From a virus: a stretch of 64,000 nucleotides of DNA. The first letter of the stretch is position 1. Each line of letters begins with the position of its first letter. The stretch lies in the IMG/VR virus record IMGVR_UViG_3300013102_000007, positions 1 through 64,000 of that record, one strand, 5' to 3'. A program made the translations under genes and the position numbers. Shown here in pieces: positions 2,591-59,504 of the stretch. A model generated the notes under the pieces. That model was not told the DNA's origin. It saw only the letters and a list, made by a program, of their open reading frames with translations, and made no database searches.

Positions 2591-2616
2591 AATTTATTTT
2601 AAAAATAATTTCATAA
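2591..2616 (+). repeat. 26-nt promoter-upstream repeat, copy 1
   Basis: AATTTATTTTAAAAATAATTTCATAA is identical to 57522-57547. Both copies lie just upstream of TTTG/-7 boxes. Confidence 0.85.
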
Positions 2617-2620
2617 AATG

Positions 2621-2651
2621 TTTGGTATTACAAATAAAGTTTGCACCTTTG
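2621..2651 (+). promoter_or_regulatory. promoter candidate TTTG-N19-CACCTTTG
   Basis: TTTG 2621-2624, 19-nt spacer, CACCTTTG 2644-2651 (near TAnnTTTG). Homologous in layout to the 57553-57584 promoter. Confidence 0.5.
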
Positions 2652-2911
2652 AAGTGTCGGAAGTGACAAACACAAAAATACTACTCTAGTATAGAAAGTC
2701 ACTAAGTATCTAAACTAACCCGATAAGCGGTAATAAGCTTTACACCTGTTTAATTATTACACTGGTTAGCAGTTCAACTAATTATATTTACAACGTGCCG
2801 TGATGGTTAACAAAGGTAAATGTACAGTTCTTTGAAGGTCGGGAAGTTTAAATAGAGTTCGCATATCTAACAAGGTTACATAATGCTTGAGCCATTTAAA
2901 CGAGTATAATA

Positions 2912-2986
2912 TACGGGTTAACTCAGCGGTAGAGTGATACTTCAATTCGAAGTAACAAGTCATAGGTTCGAATCCTATACCCGTAG
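2912..2986 (+). tRNA. tRNA-like gene with aberrant anticodon loop
   Basis: Perfect 7-bp acceptor TACGGGT/ACCCGTA, D arm ACTC-AGCGGTA-GAGT, T arm ATAGG-TTCGAAT-CCTAT. The anticodon arm is TACTT(C)-AATTC-(G)AAGTA with no U33 and no 7-nt canonical loop. Confidence 0.55.
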
Positions 2987-3012
2987 CAAACGAAAACAAA
3001 AAATTTAAAGTT

Positions 3013-3933: not shown

Positions 3934-4401
3934 ATGAAAAACACAGTAACAAGCTTTAAAGAAAAAGCAGAGCAAAACGGGGCAATAGATGCAATTGCAA
4001 TTACAGACGAAAAAGGTAATCGTGTAGGTATTTCTAAATATGAAAACGGTGAGGCCGTTATTTCAGTAGATTTTAAAAATGTAGGTTATATGGCCTCATT
4101 AAATAATGAAGGTAAACAAGCTATAATAAAATTCTTAAGTGAAGAGGCTACAGAGGTAAAAACTAAACGGGAACTATACGTATTAGTTGGTATACCCGCT
4201 GAAAATGCACCCGTTCTTTTTTCAAATACGCATTTTCTAGTGTATGCTGATAAAAATGAAGCTGATCGAGCTTGTAAAATGTTCAACGATTACTTAGTAG
4301 AAAACAATAAAATGGATATGGGCAAGTTTGTAGTTGATACGTTGGAAAACGCTAAACTATCATTCCCAAATGGTAAGTTTGATTACAGCTTACTAAATTA
4401 A
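3934..4401 (+). CDS. hypothetical protein
   Basis: 155-aa ORF. Confidence 0.7.
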   Translation: MKNTVTSFKEKAEQNGAIDAIAITDEKGNRVGISKYENGEAVISVDFKNVGYMASLNNEGKQAIIKFLSEEATEVKTKRELYVLVGIPAENAPVLFSNTHFLVYADKNEADRACKMFNDYLVENNKMDMGKFVVDTLENAKLSFPNGKFDYSLLN

Positions 4402-4408
4402 GGCATAT

Positions 4409-4470
4409 CCCTGCAATTATGGTAAAGGCTGAAATAATAAGGCTTAACTGTTCGAATCAGTTTGCAGGGG
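4409..4470 (+). ncRNA. 62-nt tRNA-like element lacking an anticodon arm
   Basis: 7-bp acceptor-like stem CCCTGCA/TGCAGGG. Canonical T arm AACTG-TTCGAAT-CAGTT. One further hairpin AUUAU-(GGUAAAGGCUGAA)-AUAAU with a GG-containing loop. No anticodon stem-loop. Confidence 0.55.
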
Positions 4471-4511
4471 CTAAGGTTACAATGTCGTAGCTTTAATTAA
4501 AAATTATTACA

Positions 4512-4790
4512 ATGAAAAATAACTCATTAAACAGCATTTTAGCTGCATTTTTAACTGTAGCAAGTACAGAGGCCGAAACAATTGAAAGATTAGAAAAAAC
4601 TTTATCAGATTATAAAGCTAATCCAAATTTAGAAACTCTTTCCACCCTATCTGCGGCTGCACATTTAGTAGATTTAAAATGGCAACATTTGAAATTTGAG
4701 GAATTGCAAAAAGAAAACCCACAACCTACAAAAAACACTGACGAATCAGACACTGAATTTCTTAAAAAATTTGGTTTCAGTGCAAATTAG
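4512..4790 (+). CDS. hypothetical protein
   Basis: 92-aa ORF. Its stop at 4788-4790 lies 1 nt before hammerhead HH1. Confidence 0.65.
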   Translation: MKNNSLNSILAAFLTVASTEAETIERLEKTLSDYKANPNLETLSTLSAAAHLVDLKWQHLKFEELQKENPQPTKNTDESDTEFLKKFGFSAN

Positions 4791-4791
4791 A

Positions 4792-4849
4792 GTTTATCTG
4801 ATGAGACTTTAATAGTCGAAATAGTAGTGTAAAAGCTACTATCATAAAC
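4792..4849 (+). ncRNA. hammerhead ribozyme, type I (HH1)
   Basis: Stem I GUUUAU/AUAAAC. Core CUGAUGA 4798-4804. Stem II GACU-UUAAU-AGUC. GAA 4818-4820. Stem III AUAGUAG-loop-CUACUAU. C17 at 4843. Confidence 0.85.
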
Positions 4850-4866
4850 AAATAAAAATTAAAATC

Positions 4867-5094
4867 ATGGAAAATCAAACATTTAAATCAACAGAATTAA
4901 TTAAAGGCACTAGATATTTTTTAGATGGTCTTAAAGATGTTAGTGGTGTATTTAGTCACATTAAGGACGGTCGGGTTTATTTTACCGATTTCAAAGAAGA
5001 GAGGCCACAAATTATGCCATACTTAGAGAAAAACGGAGACGATACAGATTTCAATCAACAACTTTTTGATATTTGGGCAGTAGAAAAAGTTTAA
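4867..5094 (+). CDS. hypothetical protein (TRYxLD..KDVSGV family)
   Basis: 75-aa ORF, paralogous to 13954-14154 and 14157-14363. Its stop codon lies inside stem I of HH2. Confidence 0.65.
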   Translation: MENQTFKSTELIKGTRYFLDGLKDVSGVFSHIKDGRVYFTDFKEERPQIMPYLEKNGDDTDFNQQLFDIWAVEKV

Positions 5095-5147
5095 CTGATG
5101 AGGCTTAAAATAGCCGAAACACGGGGTGAAAATCCCCTGTCTTAAAC
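5089..5147 (+). ncRNA. hammerhead ribozyme, type I (HH2)
   Basis: Stem I GUUUAA/UUAAAC. Core CUGAUGA 5095-5101. Stem II GGCU-UAAAAU-AGCC. GAA 5116-5118. Stem III ACA(C)GGGG-loop-CCCCUGU. C17 at 5141. Confidence 0.85.
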
Positions 5148-5164
5148 AATATAATCACGAAATT

Positions 5165-5641
5165 ATGAACAAAGAAGTAACAAACGGGTATGCTAACCTA
5201 AGAAGGTTAAAACCTACAGCACCATTTAGCCAACGTTTAAACGATTTTATTAATGATCGGGCAGAGGGATTAAGATATATAGATGGTGCTTTTCCTGAAC
5301 TATCATTTGAGGAATTTAAAGCAGAATTTAAAAGCAGTGGTGTAATGCCTATCAGTAACGAACATTGTGAAAACAATATTTTCGGGGACATTGAAACAAA
5401 CATAGCTTTTAGGGCTTGGCATGACTCAATACATTTAGAACTAAACGAAGGTTTTGAATATTTTTCTGAAGCTATTGTAGCATTTAAACAAATGAACGAA
5501 TTGCCTTTAGATTGGGTTTTTGAAAGAAATTTAATTTATTGTGAAGTTATAGGGCAAGCTGCCTACCATAGAAACACAGGCAATTTTGTTGAAGATCAAA
5601 GAGAATTTACAATTAACTTTTTAGAATCGGAAAAATTTTAA
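5165..5641 (+). CDS. hypothetical protein
   Basis: The track ORF 5126-5641 starts at a GTG inside HH2. The first ATG (5165) lies 23 nt after the predicted cleavage site. Confidence 0.65.
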   Translation: MNKEVTNGYANLRRLKPTAPFSQRLNDFINDRAEGLRYIDGAFPELSFEEFKAEFKSSGVMPISNEHCENNIFGDIETNIAFRAWHDSIHLELNEGFEYFSEAIVAFKQMNELPLDWVFERNLIYCEVIGQAAYHRNTGNFVEDQREFTINFLESEKF

Positions 5642-6311: not shown

Positions 6312-7508
6312 ATGAAAAATATTAAAATCTATGGTGATGCTATATCGGCTAACCTTTACCTAATCACAGACTTTTTAAAACGAAGCTCTATACAATTTAG
6401 TTGGGTTAGTTCTCTAACAAATACTAATGCTATTCGCTTTGAAGATGGAACTATCATATATAACCCTACAGTTAACGAAGTAGCAGATAAATTGGGATGG
6501 GTAGCAGAGCCAAAATGTACTGAATATGATGTATCTATTTTTGGCGGTGGTGTAGCTGGTTTAAGTGCAGCTGTTTACGCAGCATCTGAGGGTTTAAGAA
6601 CGGTAATAGTTGAACGTGAAACAATAGGGGGACAGGCCGGAACAAGTTCTTTAATCGAAAATTATTTAGGTTTTCCAAAAGGTATTTCGGGCGCTGAACT
6701 GGCTTTAAGGGCAAGGGAACAGGCTTTAAAATTTGGAGTTGAAATTCTATTACTAAAAGAAGGTATTAAAGGAGTTTCTAAAGATAATAATATTAACATT
6801 CAATTAGCTACAGGTGAAACAATAACCTCTAAAACTACAATCTGTGCTACAGGTGTAGAATACGCAAAATTGAACTTAGCAAACGAAAACAAGTACCTTA
6901 ATAAAGGTTTGTATTATGGTGCTGGTGCAAGTGAAGCTCCATTTTGTAAACACAAAGATGTTTATGTTGTTGGAGGTGGTAATTCAGCAGGTCAGGCCGC
7001 TGTCTACTTTTCTAAATTTGCTAAACGTGTCTACATGGTAATTCGAAAAGGAAATTTATCTGAAACTATGTCAGATTATTTAGTAAAACATATTTCAACT
7101 ATCACAAACATTTCAATACTATATAATTCAGAGGTTACAGACCTTAGCGGTAAAAAAGGTTTAGAAGCTATTAAAATATTTAATAGCAAAACTAATCAAA
7201 CCGACTTTTTTAAAACATCTAAATTATTTGTGTGTATAGGTGGAAAACCAAATACAGATTGGGCTAAAGATACTGCAATTTGCAGGGATCGTAACGGCTA
7301 TCTTTACACTGGAAACGATTTAATAGAATTAGACCAGTATAAGGAATGTTGGAAACATGACAGACAGCCTTTTCATTTAGAAACTAGTGTTGCAGGTGTG
7401 TTTGCCGCTGGTGATGTTAGATTTAATTCTGTAAAAAGAGTAGCTTCAGCAGTAGGCGAAGGGGCTATGGCAGTAACACAAATACATCAATATTTATCAA
7501 AATTGTAA
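6312..7508 (+). CDS. thioredoxin-reductase-like FAD/NAD(P)H oxidoreductase lacking the redox CxxC, with N-terminal extension
   Basis: FAD Rossmann GGGVAGLSAAVYAA, second dinucleotide site VVGGGNSAGQAA, C-terminal GVFAAGDV. The position of the TrxB CATC site reads YGAGASEA. Confidence 0.8.
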   Translation: MKNIKIYGDAISANLYLITDFLKRSSIQFSWVSSLTNTNAIRFEDGTIIYNPTVNEVADKLGWVAEPKCTEYDVSIFGGGVAGLSAAVYAASEGLRTVIVERETIGGQAGTSSLIENYLGFPKGISGAELALRAREQALKFGVEILLLKEGIKGVSKDNNINIQLATGETITSKTTICATGVEYAKLNLANENKYLNKGLYYGAGASEAPFCKHKDVYVVGGGNSAGQAAVYFSKFAKRVYMVIRKGNLSETMSDYLVKHISTITNISILYNSEVTDLSGKKGLEAIKIFNSKTNQTDFFKTSKLFVCIGGKPNTDWAKDTAICRDRNGYLYTGNDLIELDQYKECWKHDRQPFHLETSVAGVFAAGDVRFNSVKRVASAVGEGAMAVTQIHQYLSKL

Positions 7509-7545: not shown

Positions 7546-7568
7546 CATTATATTTAAAAACTAAAATT

Positions 7569-7991
7569 ATGAATGTACAGGAAATTATTAAAAGAGCTAC
7601 TGCAAATGGTGGTGGCCTAACGTTTAAAGCTGATTACAGTGCGCCTAAATCTGGCTATATGGTAGCCTTAACAGGTGGTTTGGTTTGTAAAGAGTCAGAA
7701 CTTGAAAAGGTTATGTTTAGGTATTTACATGACCATCATCACATTACAACAGGTGAAAATTATTACTTTGGTTTATGGTTAAAAGATGGTGTTGCTTACT
7801 TAGATGTTAGTCAAAACATTCAGGATAAAGAATACGCTGTGTTTCAAGGTATAGCCCGTGGACAAAAGAGCATTTACCATATTGATAGCAATAAAATTAT
7901 TGATCTACCGACCGGACAAAAAACCGGAACTACAGAACAACAACTATCATACGCTCGTCAAAAAGCTGAACAAATATTTCAAACTCTATAG
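7569..7991 (+). CDS. hypothetical protein
   Basis: 140-aa ORF downstream of a promoter candidate. Confidence 0.65.
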   Translation: MNVQEIIKRATANGGGLTFKADYSAPKSGYMVALTGGLVCKESELEKVMFRYLHDHHHITTGENYYFGLWLKDGVAYLDVSQNIQDKEYAVFQGIARGQKSIYHIDSNKIIDLPTGQKTGTTEQQLSYARQKAEQIFQTL

Positions 7992-8223: not shown

Positions 8224-8862
8224 ATGTTACAACTAACAAACTCAACAGACACATTAAAATTTGTAGCCTTTATTCAAGAGGCAATGAACTACGTTAGCTA
8301 TTTAACTCCTACTAAAATAAATTCAGGTGGGTGTGGTATTTTTGCCAGAGCGTTACATAAACTATTATCAGATAATAATATTGAGTCTGAAATTATAGCT
8401 TTATACTTTGATGAAAAAAGTGATAAGGCAGAGAAAAATTTAATAGATTACGTAAATAATAACAATAAAAAAGTATTGAGTGAAGCTGGTGCCGATCACA
8501 TAGTTTTAAAAGTTAATGAAATTTATGTAGATTCTACAGGTTTAGTAAATATGGCCGCTTTAATGAGTAGAAATACTGTTAAGTTAACATTAGATCAACT
8601 AAACGACATAATTGATAAAGGTGAATGGAATGAAGTATTTGATAGGGAACAAGAACCTTTTATAATTGAAAAATTACAGGAAGTTTTTAATAACTACGAA
8701 AATTATCATTTCGGTTTGTATATTAACAAACAATTAGCAGAAAGAAAAATCAGATTGTCCGATCATACTATTAAAACCGCTAAACGTTTACAAAGGGAAG
8801 CCATGAGTAGTATGTTTGGGTTTTCAGGTAATATAAATAACAACAATAATAGTCCATTTTAA
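8224..8862 (+). CDS. hypothetical protein
   Basis: 212-aa ORF with an Asn-rich C-terminus. Confidence 0.65.
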   Translation: MLQLTNSTDTLKFVAFIQEAMNYVSYLTPTKINSGGCGIFARALHKLLSDNNIESEIIALYFDEKSDKAEKNLIDYVNNNNKKVLSEAGADHIVLKVNEIYVDSTGLVNMAALMSRNTVKLTLDQLNDIIDKGEWNEVFDREQEPFIIEKLQEVFNNYENYHFGLYINKQLAERKIRLSDHTIKTAKRLQREAMSSMFGFSGNINNNNNSPF

Positions 8863-9811: not shown

Positions 9812-10020
9812 TGAATAAGGATATTAAAAAATCTATTGTTAGGATTGTAGTAACAGTCCTAGCTTTAGTCGGTCTAAAAATCGCGGAACACAAAGTTGAA
9901 TTTGTAGAAATTGAACTATCATTAGCCATTTTGTTTTGTTGGGTATTGTTAGTTTGTTTTACATTGGTTTTAATAGCTGAGTATTTAAAATATTTGGAAG
10001 ATGAAAAAGAAAGAGATTAA
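9811..10020 (+). CDS. small membrane protein
   Basis: 69-aa ORF with two hydrophobic helices. ATG overlaps the previous stop. Confidence 0.55.
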   Translation: MNKDIKKSIVRIVVTVLALVGLKIAEHKVEFVEIELSLAILFCWVLLVCFTLVLIAEYLKYLEDEKERD

Positions 10021-57097: not shown

Positions 57098-57122
57098 TGT
57101 TTTTAAATTTTAATTTTTATTG

Positions 57123-57193
57123 TTTGCTCTGCGAGACTCGAACTCGCATCTACTGCGGAGAAGCAGCTTTCTACCAAATTGAACTAAGAGCAA
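57123..57193 (-). tRNA. tRNA-like gene, anticodon uncertain (UCC if the 7-nt loop UCUCCGC is used)
   Basis: Acceptor TTGCTCT/AGAGCAA and T arm GCGAG-TTCGAGT-CTCGC are perfect. The anticodon arm folds either as a 7-nt loop with C33 and a 2-nt variable region, or as a 6-nt loop. Confidence 0.5.
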
Positions 57194-57349
57194 TCCATTA
57201 GTCTTTCCTAAAAGTCAACCTATCCTCCTTATATCCTCAACAACAATGCTACACTTTTCTACAAAACTTCTACGTCTTTCCGTATATCGTCATGTTGTTA
57301 CGTCTTGAATATATCTACTTTCGGTATTCGTCTATCTGAATTTGTGTTG

Positions 57350-57423
57350 TAGTTCCTGAAGGATTTGAACCTCCGACCAGATGAATATAAGTCATCCACT
57401 CTACCAGACTGAGTTAAGGAACC
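57350..57423 (-). tRNA. tRNA-Ile (anticodon UAU)
   Basis: GGTTCCT/AGGAACT acceptor, D arm ACTC-AGTCTGGTA-GAGT, anticodon arm GATGA-CTTATAT-TCATC, T loop TTCAAAT. Confidence 0.8.
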
Positions 57424-57523: not shown

Positions 57524-57547
57524 TTTATTTTAAAAATAATTTCATAA
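57522..57547 (+). repeat. 26-nt promoter-upstream repeat, copy 2
   Basis: Identical to 2591-2616. Confidence 0.85.
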
Positions 57548-57552
57548 CCCTA

Positions 57553-57584
57553 TTTGAATATGTAAAATTAAATTTGTACATTTG
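57553..57584 (+). promoter_or_regulatory. promoter candidate TTTG-N20-TACATTTG
   Basis: TTTG 57553-57556, 20-nt spacer, TACATTTG 57577-57584. Heads the tRNA array. Confidence 0.55.
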
Positions 57585-57719: not shown

Positions 57720-57792
57720 AGCCGTGAATGTACCAAGGTGGCGACGGAAACTCCAAATCTCTGTGCGTAAGGTTCGATTCCTTAGACGGTTG
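57720..57792 (+). tRNA. tRNA-Trp (CCA), weak D arm
   Basis: T arm TAAGG-TTCGATT-CCTTA, anticodon loop CTCCAAA, 6 of 7 acceptor pairs. The D stem pairs poorly. Confidence 0.5.
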
Positions 57793-58154: not shown

Positions 58155-58224
58155 GGGAAAACGCTAAGGTTGTCGGAAGGATTGTAACCCCTAACCGCAT
58201 AAAGTTCGAGTCTTTTCTTTCCCA
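58155..58224 (+). tRNA. 70-nt tRNA-like element without a canonical D arm
   Basis: Acceptor GGGAAA(A)/(C)TTTCCC and T loop TTCGAGT are present. The middle folds best as one long bulged hairpin (58168-58196) with loop ATTGTAA (UGU). Confidence 0.4.
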
Positions 58225-58231
58225 CTAGGTA

Positions 58232-58457: not shown

Positions 58458-58554
58458 CGTAGTAAGAAACAGGGGTTCGAATCCCCTACTGAATCACTTG
58501 ATTGTTGGCTCGGTTCGTTTAGGGGTGAGGACGCTTACGTTGAAATTTTAAAAT
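58458..58554 (+). other. tRNA 3' half followed by tRNA 5' half (permuted order)
   Basis: 58462-58495 reads GTAAG-AAAC-AGGGG-TTCGAAT-CCCCT-ACTGAAT-C. 58508-58545 reads GCTCGGT-TC-GTTT-AGGGGTGA-GGAC-G-CTTAC-GTTGAAA. CTTAC/GTAAG are fully complementary, and the acceptor strands pair at 6 of 7 positions. Confidence 0.5.
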
Positions 58555-59349: not shown

Positions 59350-59423
59350 CAGGATGTTCCAGCAGAGGCATACGGGCTAGACTTGGAATCTAGTGTTCGT
59401 GGGTTCGAATCCCACTATCCTGA
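59350..59423 (+). tRNA. tRNA-Pro (UGG)
   Basis: Acceptor CAGGATG/TATCCTG, anticodon arm CTAGA-CTTGGAA-TCTAG, T arm GTGGG-TTCGAAT-CCCAC. D arm irregular. Confidence 0.75.
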
Positions 59424-59433
59424 CTTTATATAA

Positions 59434-59504
59434 TGCCTTATAGCACAATGGTAGTGCGACCGACTTTGACTCGGTTTATCTAGGTTCGATCCCTAGTAGG
59501 GCAT
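59434..59504 (+). tRNA. tRNA-Gln (UUG)
   Basis: Acceptor TGCCTTA/TAGGGCA, D arm GCAC-AATGGTA-GTGC, anticodon arm ACCGA-CTTTGAC-TCGGT. Confidence 0.85.

Follow-up and report, generated by a model that had tools for sequence, protein, structure and literature searches.

A tRNA-like element between two small phage genes

The sequence analysed here is a 64,000-nt stretch of viral DNA, positions 1 to 64,000 of the IMG/VR record IMGVR_UViG_3300013102_000007 (the window), which is part of the 78.5-kb metagenomic contig ENA ERZ27252506 k141_2765687 and has a G+C content of 32%. Its minus strand encodes a large terminase, a portal protein and long tail-type open reading frames (ORFs), and its plus strand carries, from about 3.0 to 14.9 kb, a series of small, tightly packed, co-oriented ORFs. 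Between two of these, at 4409-4470 on the plus strand, lies a 62-nt element (the 4409 element) that resembles the top half of a tRNA and is the subject of our analysis, which was entirely computational. The stop codon of the upstream ORF (3934-4401) is the TAA at 4399-4401, from which the element is separated by 7 nt (4402-4408), and the ATG of the next ORF, at 4512, begins 41 nt past the final G4470, in agreement with the placement between these two ORFs given by an original prediction that was made from the sequence alone. The element reads CCCTGCA / ATTATGGTAAAGGCTGAAATAATAAGGCTT / AACTG TTCGAAT CAGTT / TGCAGGG / G and is composed of the following segments.

4409..4415 (+): acceptor-like 5' strand CCCTGCA, 7/7 Watson-Crick with 4463-4469, with U at position -1
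4416..4425 (+): linker AUUAUGGUAA, single-stranded in the constrained fold, with a D-loop-like UGGU (a G18G19 mimic)
4426..4445 (+): middle hairpin AGGCU-GAAAUAAUAA-GGCUU, abutting the T stem (constrained fold, -16.2 kcal/mol)
4446..4462 (+): T arm AACUG-UUCGAAU-CAGUU, 5/5 Watson-Crick, G53-C61, canonical T loop
4463..4470 (+): acceptor 3' strand UGCAGGG and discriminator G4470, as read from the sequence; predicted RNase Z cut after G4470

The perfect 7-bp acceptor-like stem (CCCTGCA/TGCAGGG) and the canonical T arm (AACTG-TTCGAAT-CAGTT) that had been described earlier are both borne out by direct reading, with the T arm placed immediately against the 3' acceptor strand (0-nt spacer) in tRNA-like geometry. 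The element therefore has what defines the top half of a canonical tRNA, namely a 7-bp acceptor, a 5-bp T stem closed by G53-C61 and a T54-T55-C56-R57-A58 loop. This all-Watson-Crick 7+5 arrangement with a TTCRA loop occurs three times in 1000 dinucleotide shuffles of the window and five times in the real window, at four bona fide tRNAs and at the 4409 element, and chance is excluded as its source. In addition, the folding energy of the 62-mer beats that of all 200 shuffles compared with it (z = -3.0).

The acceptor 5' strand and the T stem are just 30 nt apart, which leaves room for neither an anticodon arm nor a D stem, and an element with no anticodon arm cannot decode. Indeed, there is no 5-bp stem with a 7-nt loop carrying U33 and R37, and the UGGU is present with no 3-4-bp D stem to support it. 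The silence of the tRNA finders agrees with the missing anticodon arm, which the original prediction had also claimed: ARAGORN calls neither a tRNA nor a tmRNA for the element, and the Rfam tRNA model RF00005 gives no match at its gathering score (29 bits), nor at E <= 10 on 301-nt and 82-nt stretches.

With the acceptor and the T arm held fixed, the middle prefers a 5-bp hairpin of AGGCU (4426-4430) with GGCUU (4441-4445) and a 10-nt loop (-16.2 vs -14.0 kcal/mol), which leaves AUUAUGGUAA unpaired, with its UGGU resembling G18G19 of the D loop. The different hairpin proposed earlier, AUUAU/AUAAU (4416-4420 with 4434-4438, with a 13-nt loop), can be drawn, but it is marginal, adding 0.6 kcal/mol, and is probably not the one that forms. 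The unconstrained minimum-free-energy fold of the 62-mer contains yet another hairpin and is not tRNA-like (-18.6 kcal/mol), as is common among real tRNAs.

Seen as a potential substrate of RNase P, the element combines the 7+5 coaxial stack, the T loop and U4408 at position -1, and its 5' leader GGCAUAU is unpaired in the tRNA-like fold; the predicted cut falls between U4408 and C4409. An acceptor-stem/T-stem/T-loop hairpin is enough for accurate and efficient canonical-site cleavage by bacterial RNase P RNA (PMC11143913), and the structural part of the earlier claim, that an acceptor stacked on a T arm with no decoding arm is the minimal shape for RNase P and RNase Z, is upheld. On the 3' side, the trailer CUA after G4470 follows the pattern N73-C74-N-A without CCA, as do several genuine tRNAs of the phage.

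Hammerhead ribozyme motifs at the next two junctions

On folding the other intergenic regions of the operon we met two hammerheads, 320 and 620 nt downstream of the 4409 element.

4792..4849 (+): hammerhead 1, type I, predicted cut after C4843, 23 nt before ATG 4867; RAGATH-1 27.3 bits
5089..5147 (+): hammerhead 2, type I, predicted cut after C5141, 23 nt before ATG 5165; RAGATH-1 30.2 bits

The first reads GUUUAU/CUGAUGA/GACU-UUAAU-AGUC/GAA/AUAGUAG-UGUAAAAG-CUACUAU/C^AUAAAC and the second GUUUAA/CUGAUGA/GGCU-UAAAAU-AGCC/GAA/ACA(C)GGGG-UGAAAAU-CCCCUGU/C^UUAAAC. Direct reading and a descriptor scan find in both the core CUGANGA ... GAAA, the A15.1-U16.1 pair, H17 and three helices, and in the scan of the window these were the sole hammerhead sites. 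Both score below the gathering threshold of the Rfam RAGATH-1 hammerhead model (56.3), and both are, as motifs, complete textbook type-I hammerheads for which self-cleavage is predicted. Three consecutive plus-strand junctions (4402-4511, 4791-4866 and 5095-5164) each hold a compact structured RNA that is a candidate RNA-cutting module, the 4409 element, with its RNase P and RNase Z substrate shape, in the first and the predicted self-cleaving hammerheads in the second and third. Clustered hammerheads are known to flank single prophage genes and to cleave in vitro and in E. coli (PMC3088659), and their proposed role is to convert long polycistronic phage transcripts into gene-length mRNAs (PMC3088659; PMC6765202).

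Family models and homologue searches

Rfam gave nothing credible at 4300-4600 on either strand; the weak matches, to tpke11, SNORD28, an xrRNA and the DUF2693-FD RNA, were rejected as chance, the last of these (RF02926, minus strand) scoring 12.0 bits with E = 3.3 in the 82-nt search vs a gathering score of 44.5, with only the CCCUGC/GCAGGG outer stem in common. A tmRNA was rejected as well, as ARAGORN finds none anywhere in the window and Rfam returns no tmRNA match, and so was a bacterial Y RNA (YrlA), which has no match at 4300-4600 and whose sole weak match in the window lies over real tRNAs at 59371-59493. The 4409 element thus falls outside the tRNA family, for want of an anticodon arm, a D stem and a model match, and it is not a tmRNA, a YrlA or a member of another Rfam family.

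These searches, together with the hammerheads nearby, bear on the idea that the element is some other cis-acting RNA that is tRNA-like in appearance alone, either an undescribed self-cleaving ribozyme or a protein-binding or translational operator. New ribozyme classes have been discovered by searching near known ribozymes, and the element adjoins two hammerheads and folds as a compact three-way junction (z = -3). We nevertheless hold this to be highly unlikely, given the exact tRNA geometry (7+5 bp, no spacer, G53-C61, TTCGAAU) combined with a D-loop-like GG, and given that no ribozyme family matches at E <= 10, the minus strand yielding only DUF2693-FD at 12 bits vs 44.5.

Pattern scans of public collections returned no relative. 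The exact T-arm plus acceptor pattern has 0 matches in IMG/VR, and the looser CCCTGCA-N20-50-TTCGAAT-N5-TGCAGGG has one match there, an out-of-register jumbo-phage tRNA, with 8 more in JGI metagenomes and 11 in GTDB genomes (one per species), none with the T stem in register. These roughly 20 matches to the outer stem plus T loop, 0 of them in register, provide an empirical gauge of how rare the full arrangement is. The 22-nt 3' half of the element has 0 matches in GTDB genomes, and no parent tRNA was found in the IMG/VR, JGI metagenome and GTDB pattern scans. An origin as an attP site or tRNA 3' fragment was rejected, since the 5' acceptor strand is present and perfectly paired and no bacterial tRNA in the GTDB scans has the 3' half. 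The two flanking proteins, of 155 and 92 amino acids, match only themselves among 5.8 billion proteins, and their ORFs have no PHROG or Pfam family and no relative in IMG/VR. The element is, in short, a sequence singleton, and its flanking ORFs are orphans.

Short tRNA-like elements and ribozyme motifs in related phages

The gene at 5165-5641, next after hammerhead 2, belongs to the family phrog_7806, and around its homologues (24-71% identity) we fetched 51 loci, about 790 kb in all, which are designated below by L numbers. A strict scan for an acceptor plus T arm shorter than a tRNA, for which the expected number of chance hits was ~0.18 in the first 160 kb and ~0.97 in the other 629 kb (about 1.15), matched, outside real tRNAs, the 4409 element and three others: L028 1787-1846 (60 nt), L029 9625-9665 (41 nt) and L033 15171-15219 (49 nt). 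Weaker candidates were L029 8472-8523 (L029a) and L041 9798-9865 (L041a). All of these minis are on the coding strand, and their positions are intergenic except for that of L041a, of which about 33 nt overlap the end of the ORF upstream.

One further candidate, L033 10789-10848 (L033b), was dropped, as Rfam shows it to be part of a 106-nt tRNA-like element whose acceptor strand is GATGAGT. That larger element spans L033 10744-10849, and other enlarged forms were seen at L033 15232-15410, a tRNA-like element with an insertion of more than 100 nt before the T arm, and at L041 13736-13817, an 81-nt tRNA-like element with a second, internal T-arm-like hairpin.

Two scans of IMG/VR by T-arm sequence, with or without the trailer and with no acceptor required, yielded a 46-nt mini at L086 5002-5047, with a 7/7 acceptor, a T arm identical to that of the 4409 element and a near-identical copy in L094, and a 42-nt mini at L087 3273-3314 with a 6/7 acceptor. 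A pattern built from the loop and T arm common to the 4409 element and L029a gave 12 matches, none of them structural. Two 109-nt elements, in L088 and L092, also carry the exact T arm of the 4409 element. Directly after the mini of L086, at the end of its contig, there is a direct repeat of ~55 nt (TTAAGAGGCTAATTATAGCCTTTATATGCTTAATGACTGGCATTGTATTACCTA, 5050-5164), and L089 has, at about 1906-1978, a phage tRNA of the amber suppressor type, with the anticodon loop CUCUAAC and the anticodon CUA.

Five independent minis have a GG 1-5 nt past the 5' acceptor strand (AUUAUGG in the 4409 element, UUUGG in L028, AUGG in L029b, AUGG in L087 and UGGG in L086), where by our own estimate ~14% of comparable stretches of such A+T-rich DNA would have a GG in their first six positions. 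The remainder of the middle is variable, consisting of 10 nt, 11 nt, 15 nt or a hairpin, and the top half is retained throughout. A middle that is free to vary while the top half and the GG are kept is what selection on an elbow and minihelix recognised by RNase P and RNase Z predicts. A hairpin that abuts the T stem, as in the 4409 element, is seen in L029 8472-8523 and L028 1787-1846; in L029a the layout is the same, with a 5-bp hairpin (8480-8499) and a 10-nt loop, AAAAUAAUAC vs GAAAUAAUAA, although every stem pair differs and the flanking genes are not homologous to those of the 4409 element.

This diversity of the middle also bears on whether the element could be an aberrant but functional decoding tRNA that has no D arm and uses the middle hairpin as an anticodon arm with an oversized loop, which we find scarcely credible. 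It does possess an acceptor, a T arm and a tRNA-like 3' trailer, and the middle hairpin of L028 can be drawn with a 7-nt loop, but its own loop has 10 nt (13 nt in the fold first proposed) with no U33-NNN-R37 context, ARAGORN and the Rfam tRNA model reject it, and L029b, L087 and L086 have no hairpin in the middle at all. To our knowledge, tRNAs with no D arm occur only in mitochondria, with co-adapted factors. Natural non-canonical tRNAs as such do exist (PMC7609411, PMC5389517).

The main alternative, which we judge somewhat unlikely, is a decaying tRNA gene that has lost its D stem and anticodon arm by internal deletions and has no selected function, so that any clipping by host nucleases would be incidental. 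The phage does have about 19 tRNA genes along with aberrant or fragmentary ones (58471-58487, 57721-57791 and 2912), and fragments of tRNA genes are pervasive in prokaryotic genomes according to a preprint (bioRxiv 10.1101/2022.07.05.498093); that the 4409 element is a singleton with no homologues would fit decay, and a repeated 6-nt sequence in direct orientation, AAGGCT at 4425-4430 and again at 4439-4444, may be the trace of an indel. The pairing argues the other way, with 12/12 Watson-Crick pairs in the top half, which is better than in several working tRNAs of the same genome. Moreover, at least two separate deletions would have been needed, because the GG follows after only 5 nt, where a tRNA has about 10, and the 3' side is shortened too, and both deletions would have had to spare every pair of the top half and the GG. 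Independent phages show the same outcome, an intact top half and GG with a shrunken, variable middle, and the operon is tightly packed, with ribozymes at its junctions 4791-4866 and 5095-5164.

Ribozyme motifs also occur in the other phages. L012 has a perfect type-III hammerhead at 8269-8321, before the first gene after a promoter block that aligns with window positions 2628-2675, and, directly upstream of its homologue of the 5165-5641 gene, a sub-threshold match to twister-P1 at 9937-9987 (34 bits, E = 8.5e-4). Helix III of this type-III hammerhead contains the start codon of the next gene, and the same pair of twister-P1 and type-III hammerhead is present in L031. L041 has a type-I hammerhead very like hammerhead 1 of the window, and L054 a type-III hammerhead. 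What precedes the phrog_7806-family gene accordingly differs from phage to phage: a hammerhead in the window, the sub-threshold twister-P1 in L012, a T-loop hairpin or weak tRNA-like element in L041 and, in L026, a promoter-like -7 motif (CACCTTTG), identified by eye about 40 nt upstream. Likewise, past the conserved early promoter block, what comes before the first gene is a tRNA in the window and the type-III hammerhead in L012, and from these sequence comparisons the RNA-cutting modules look interchangeable.

In L043, a more distant contig (34% identity in the gene family), a full cloverleaf at 7556-7627 (Rfam 44.5 bits) carries, on a 6-bp stem, a GAAA tetraloop where the anticodon loop would be, and lies 31 nt before the next ORF, so non-decoding tRNA shapes exist there also. 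A separate feature of these loci is a leader motif, AAAUCACGA(A/U), which in five phages (window 5153-5160; L012, L026, L041 and L043) lies 3-8 nt upstream of where the phrog_7806-family gene starts. The motif is found again past the tetraloop tRNA of L043 and may be a translational operator or initiation signal.

Distances from predicted cuts to start codons

If the leader is counted from the predicted new 5' end up to the start of the following ORF, the hammerheads have leaders of 23, 23 and 19 nt, and the tRNA or tRNA-like elements have leaders of 26, 22, 19, 15, 26, 31, 33, 41 and 49 nt, with one outlier of 155 nt (L033c), where the next feature is another tRNA-like element and not a gene. 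The A content of the leaders is mostly 0.5-0.7, with values of 0.39 for the 4409 element and 0.43 for L041b. The predicted cuts at minis and at hammerheads would thus mostly leave A-rich leaders of ~15-33 nt, and in this respect the two kinds of module resemble each other.

The 41-nt leader of the 4409 element consists of one unpaired C, a 9-bp hairpin and 16 A/U-rich nucleotides that lead to ATG 4512.

4472..4495 (+): hairpin, 9 bp, dG -8.1 kcal/mol, z = -3.3, 0/200 shuffles fold as well

The hairpin begins 1 nt past the predicted 3' cut and is not terminator-like, since no U tract follows it. Hairpins flush with the 5' end are known stabilisers that shield mRNAs from 5'-end-dependent decay, and by analogy the hairpin at 4472-4495 is a candidate 5'-terminal protective stem-loop of the downstream mRNA.

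Comparison with known systems

The closest functional counterparts of the 4409 element are, by analogy, the t-elements of plant mitochondria and the minimal substrates of RNase P, and its genomic niche is that of the clustered phage hammerheads. The t-elements are non-canonical tRNA-like structures with a conserved T arm at which RNase P and RNase Z are proposed to make mRNA ends, with cox1, ccmC and nad6 as demonstrated cases (PMC1920247). Like them, the 4409 element is non-decoding, has a conserved T arm and lies beside protein-coding genes in what would be a longer transcript, and it shows the structural hallmarks of a t-element, a non-canonical tRNA-like fold with a T arm, beside a coding region and on the strand predicted to be transcribed. 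Its T loop fits TTCRANY, but the outer GG..CC of the plant motif GGTTCRANYCC (PMC1920247) is unmatched, the sequence here being CTGTTCGAATCAG. The t-elements differ in being organellar, experimentally mapped and larger, whereas the 4409 element belongs to a bacteriophage, is known from its sequence alone, has 62 nt (other minis down to 41 nt) with the whole anticodon arm and the D stem gone, and stands alongside self-cleaving ribozymes in the same operon.

According to the review PMC11143913, McClain, Guerrier-Takada and Altman found in 1987 that an acceptor, a T stem and a T loop suffice for RNase P, and its non-tRNA substrates include phage M3 RNA, phage C4 RNA, operon mRNAs and pre-tmRNA (PMC11143913). 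The 4409 element shares with the minimal substrates the 12-bp coaxial helix, the T-loop cap and the single-stranded 5' leader, and differs in being natural, in having a 30-nt insert (the GG linker and hairpin) and in having no 3' RCCA.

Clustered hammerheads and twisters of phages and prophages (PMC3088659; PMC6765202) are likewise situated between small co-oriented phage genes, with several modules per operon and a proposed role in cutting polycistronic RNA; they cut themselves, leaving a 2',3'-cyclic phosphate and a 5'-OH, whereas a tRNA-like element needs the host RNase P and RNase Z, which leave a 3'-OH and a 5'-phosphate. The tRNA-like domain of tmRNA, itself part of an RNase P substrate, is similar in combining an acceptor, a T arm and a D-loop-like strand with no D stem and no anticodon, but the 4409 element has just 62 nt and lacks a tag reading frame, pseudoknots and the long helix that replaces the anticodon arm. 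In mascRNA, the MEN-beta tRNA-like RNA and mitochondrial tRNA punctuation, a tRNA fold within a long transcript recruits RNase P and RNase Z and so makes the ends of the flanking RNAs; these cases are eukaryotic nuclear or organellar and keep a cloverleaf with a (short) anticodon arm. Finally, tRNA pseudogenes and fragments of phages resemble the element in being tRNA-derived and non-decoding and in occurring in a tRNA-rich phage, but they are typically 5' or 3' pieces or have scattered mismatches, whereas here both ends are kept and perfectly paired and the bottom half of the L shape is missing.

A possible role in processing an early transcript

The reading we favour, with roughly even confidence, is that the 4409 element is a phage counterpart of the plant-mitochondrial t-elements, a miniaturised tRNA kept as a processing signal for RNase P and RNase Z. 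Its observed basis is the structure of the element and its non-random character, the adjacent ribozymes and the recurrence of minis in related phages; from these we infer that transcription runs through the element, that RNase P and RNase Z cut it and that this may affect mRNA stability or translation. The original prediction had placed the element inside an mRNA, which is consistent with the co-oriented ORFs and with the lack of any predicted plus-strand terminator between 1758 and 8000; neither an intrinsic terminator nor a sigma-70 promoter was found at the element itself.

Under the t-element reading, the tRNA-derived top half would form in a polycistronic early transcript, with the 7-bp acceptor coaxial with the 5-bp T arm, and the D-loop-like GG segment could close the tRNA elbow. 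RNase P would then cut at 4408/4409, so that the upstream message would end 7 nt past its stop codon, and an RNase Z-type 3' activity would cut after G4470, so that the downstream message would begin at C4471 and reach ATG 4512 by way of the 5'-terminal hairpin at 4472-4495 and a short A/U-rich stretch. In this way the link between the two cistrons would be severed, and the downstream mRNA would have a defined 5' end capped by a hairpin. This would be the same job as that of the two hammerheads at the next junctions and of an odd tRNA at 2912 before the first gene of the operon, namely separating cistrons and placing mRNA ends near start codons. The earlier suggestion that the element is a processing site or 3'-end stabiliser thereby gains strong circumstantial support from the hammerheads, the minis of related phages and the distances from cut to ATG, with the cleavage itself being a prediction.

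Several considerations weigh against this reading. The element has no alignable homologue in the viral, metagenome and genome scans, its ends and its cleavage are predicted, and most of the other leaders are shorter than its 41 nt. The 3' RCCA motif, which pairs with the P15 loop and helps bacterial RNase P, is absent, with GCUA in its place, although this does not set the element apart, because most genuine tRNAs of the phage have no encoded CCA either. The predicted 3' cut would need an RNase Z in the host, and after the RNase P cut the 3' end of the upstream mRNA would be exposed. The other minis, mostly of unrelated sequence, count as analogues and were picked in part by the same structural features; two of them, L041a and L029a, are weak. 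In addition, the same genome holds pieces of tRNA that look decayed, the lone T arm at 58471-58487 and the odd tRNA-like sequence at 57721-57791, so tRNA decay does happen in this phage.

In a different role for the same structure, the excised 62-nt RNA, perhaps CCA-tailed, would itself be the product, a stable mimic of the tRNA top half that acts in trans. It might, for example, serve a phage protein as cofactor or sequester, as a decoy or sponge, defence toxins or host factors that bind to the acceptor end or elbow of tRNAs. None of our observations conflicts with this, and it could go together with processing; excised t-elements accumulate as stable RNAs in plant mitochondria (PMC1920247). 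The elbow features (T loop and GG) are kept, the 3' trailer is like that of real tRNAs, the similarity of the loop GAAAUAAUAA to AAAAUAAUAC of L029a despite different stems hints at a sequence-specific loop, and the mini of L086/L094 follows an intrinsic terminator and does not lie between closely spaced genes. We consider such a role unlikely all the same, as the middle region is not conserved among the minis, the neighbouring genes, orphans with no Pfam or PHROG family, offer no identifiable partner protein, and the literature searched holds no anti-defence precedent for a tRNA mimic with no anticodon. Most known tRNA-targeting defence nucleases attack anticodon loops, which the element does not have.

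Returning to the t-element reading, we extend it tentatively, as a possibility held with less confidence than the reading itself, to the phages of this group, whose hosts are probably Bacteroidota. In these phages, early polycistronic transcripts may be punctuated by RNA-cutting cassettes that can stand in for one another and mostly lie 15-33 nt ahead of start codons. A cassette would be either a hammerhead or twister ribozyme or a 41-62-nt tRNA top half that uses the host RNase P and RNase Z. If so, the tRNA-like minis would be a previously undescribed class of t-elements of bacterial viruses, and would extend tRNA punctuation and t-elements, so far a matter of organelles and eukaryotic nuclei, to such viruses. 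The open-access literature searched contained no report of anticodon-less tRNA top halves as intercistronic signals of phages, nor of such top halves occurring together with self-cleaving ribozymes. What most self-cleaving ribozymes do in bacteria and phages is not known (PMC6765202), and the positional equivalence of minis and ribozymes would suggest a testable function, the definition of mRNA ends, for many of these orphans. Three kinds of RNA-cutting module seem to be at work side by side in one operon, namely a full tRNA, the top half of a tRNA and a pair of hammerheads. The varied modules before one gene family point to a shared purpose, a defined mRNA end near the start codon, and they also amount to a natural swap experiment. 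Such elements would also show how far a tRNA can be trimmed while the features read by RNase P and RNase Z persist, and they are missed entirely by standard tRNA finders and Rfam.

Promoter, tRNA genes and other features of the window

Upstream of the operon, two features stand at its putative beginning.

2593..2651 (+): candidate early promoter module, a 24-nt box repeated at 57524-57547, then a Bacteroidota-type -33 TTTG / -7 CACCTTTG
2912..2987 (+): odd full-length tRNA, ARAGORN tRNA-Asn(att), Rfam 44.6 bits, 26 nt before the first ORF (ATG 3013)

The 24-nt sequence TTTATTTTAAAAATAATTTCATAA is repeated exactly at 2593-2616 and 57524-57547 (+), and within about 5 nt after each copy comes a promoter motif, TTTG ... 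CACCTTTG at 2621 and TTTG ... TACATTTG at 57553. Each copy lies upstream of a plus-strand unit that begins with tRNA or tRNA-like genes, and the core block of the module, ACCTTTGAAGTGT, is kept in L012 at about 7815. The module at 2593-2651 is therefore a candidate to drive the polycistronic transcript. Promoter motifs of the form TTTG ... TAnnTTTG and the A-rich leaders before most genes suggest a Bacteroidota host, ORF 3934 being an exception among the leaders with AGGAGG upstream. The terminase of the phage has 28% identity with those of Flavobacterium and Cellulophaga phages, and INPHARED contained no nucleotide or capsid-region match to the window.

The anticodon loop of the 2912 tRNA is CAAUUCG, with A33 instead of U33, C37 and an 'anticodon' AUU, and for these reasons it is probably not a normal decoder and is either non-decoding or very unusual. 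Between a strong intrinsic terminator (1733-1758) and this tRNA, about 1.1 kb (1760-2900) has no credible ORF; this region is probably regulatory, or an origin, and would include a long transcribed leader.

Apart from the isolated tRNA at 2912, the tRNA genes of the phage form a cluster of about 17 at 57.1-59.7 kb, two of which, at 57122-57193 (-) and 57349-57423 (-), are opposite to the rest; one of these two has no anticodon assigned by ARAGORN ('ct') and the other is tRNA-Ile(UAU). Three plus-strand sequences inside and beside the cluster, either tRNA debris or atypical tRNA-like elements, are called by neither ARAGORN nor Rfam: a lone canonical T arm at 58471-58487, 12 nt past a tRNA-Ala; a tRNA-like sequence of ~71 nt at 57721-57791, in which the acceptor pairs 6/7 and neither a D arm nor an anticodon arm can be recognised; and a possible degenerate tRNA at about 58155-58226. 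Finally, the ORF at 6312-7508 (+) encodes a 398-amino acid pyridine-nucleotide-disulfide (thioredoxin-reductase-like) oxidoreductase with an N-terminal extension of ~70 amino acids, and the family of this protein carries in PHROGs the label of a ribonucleotide reductase subunit.

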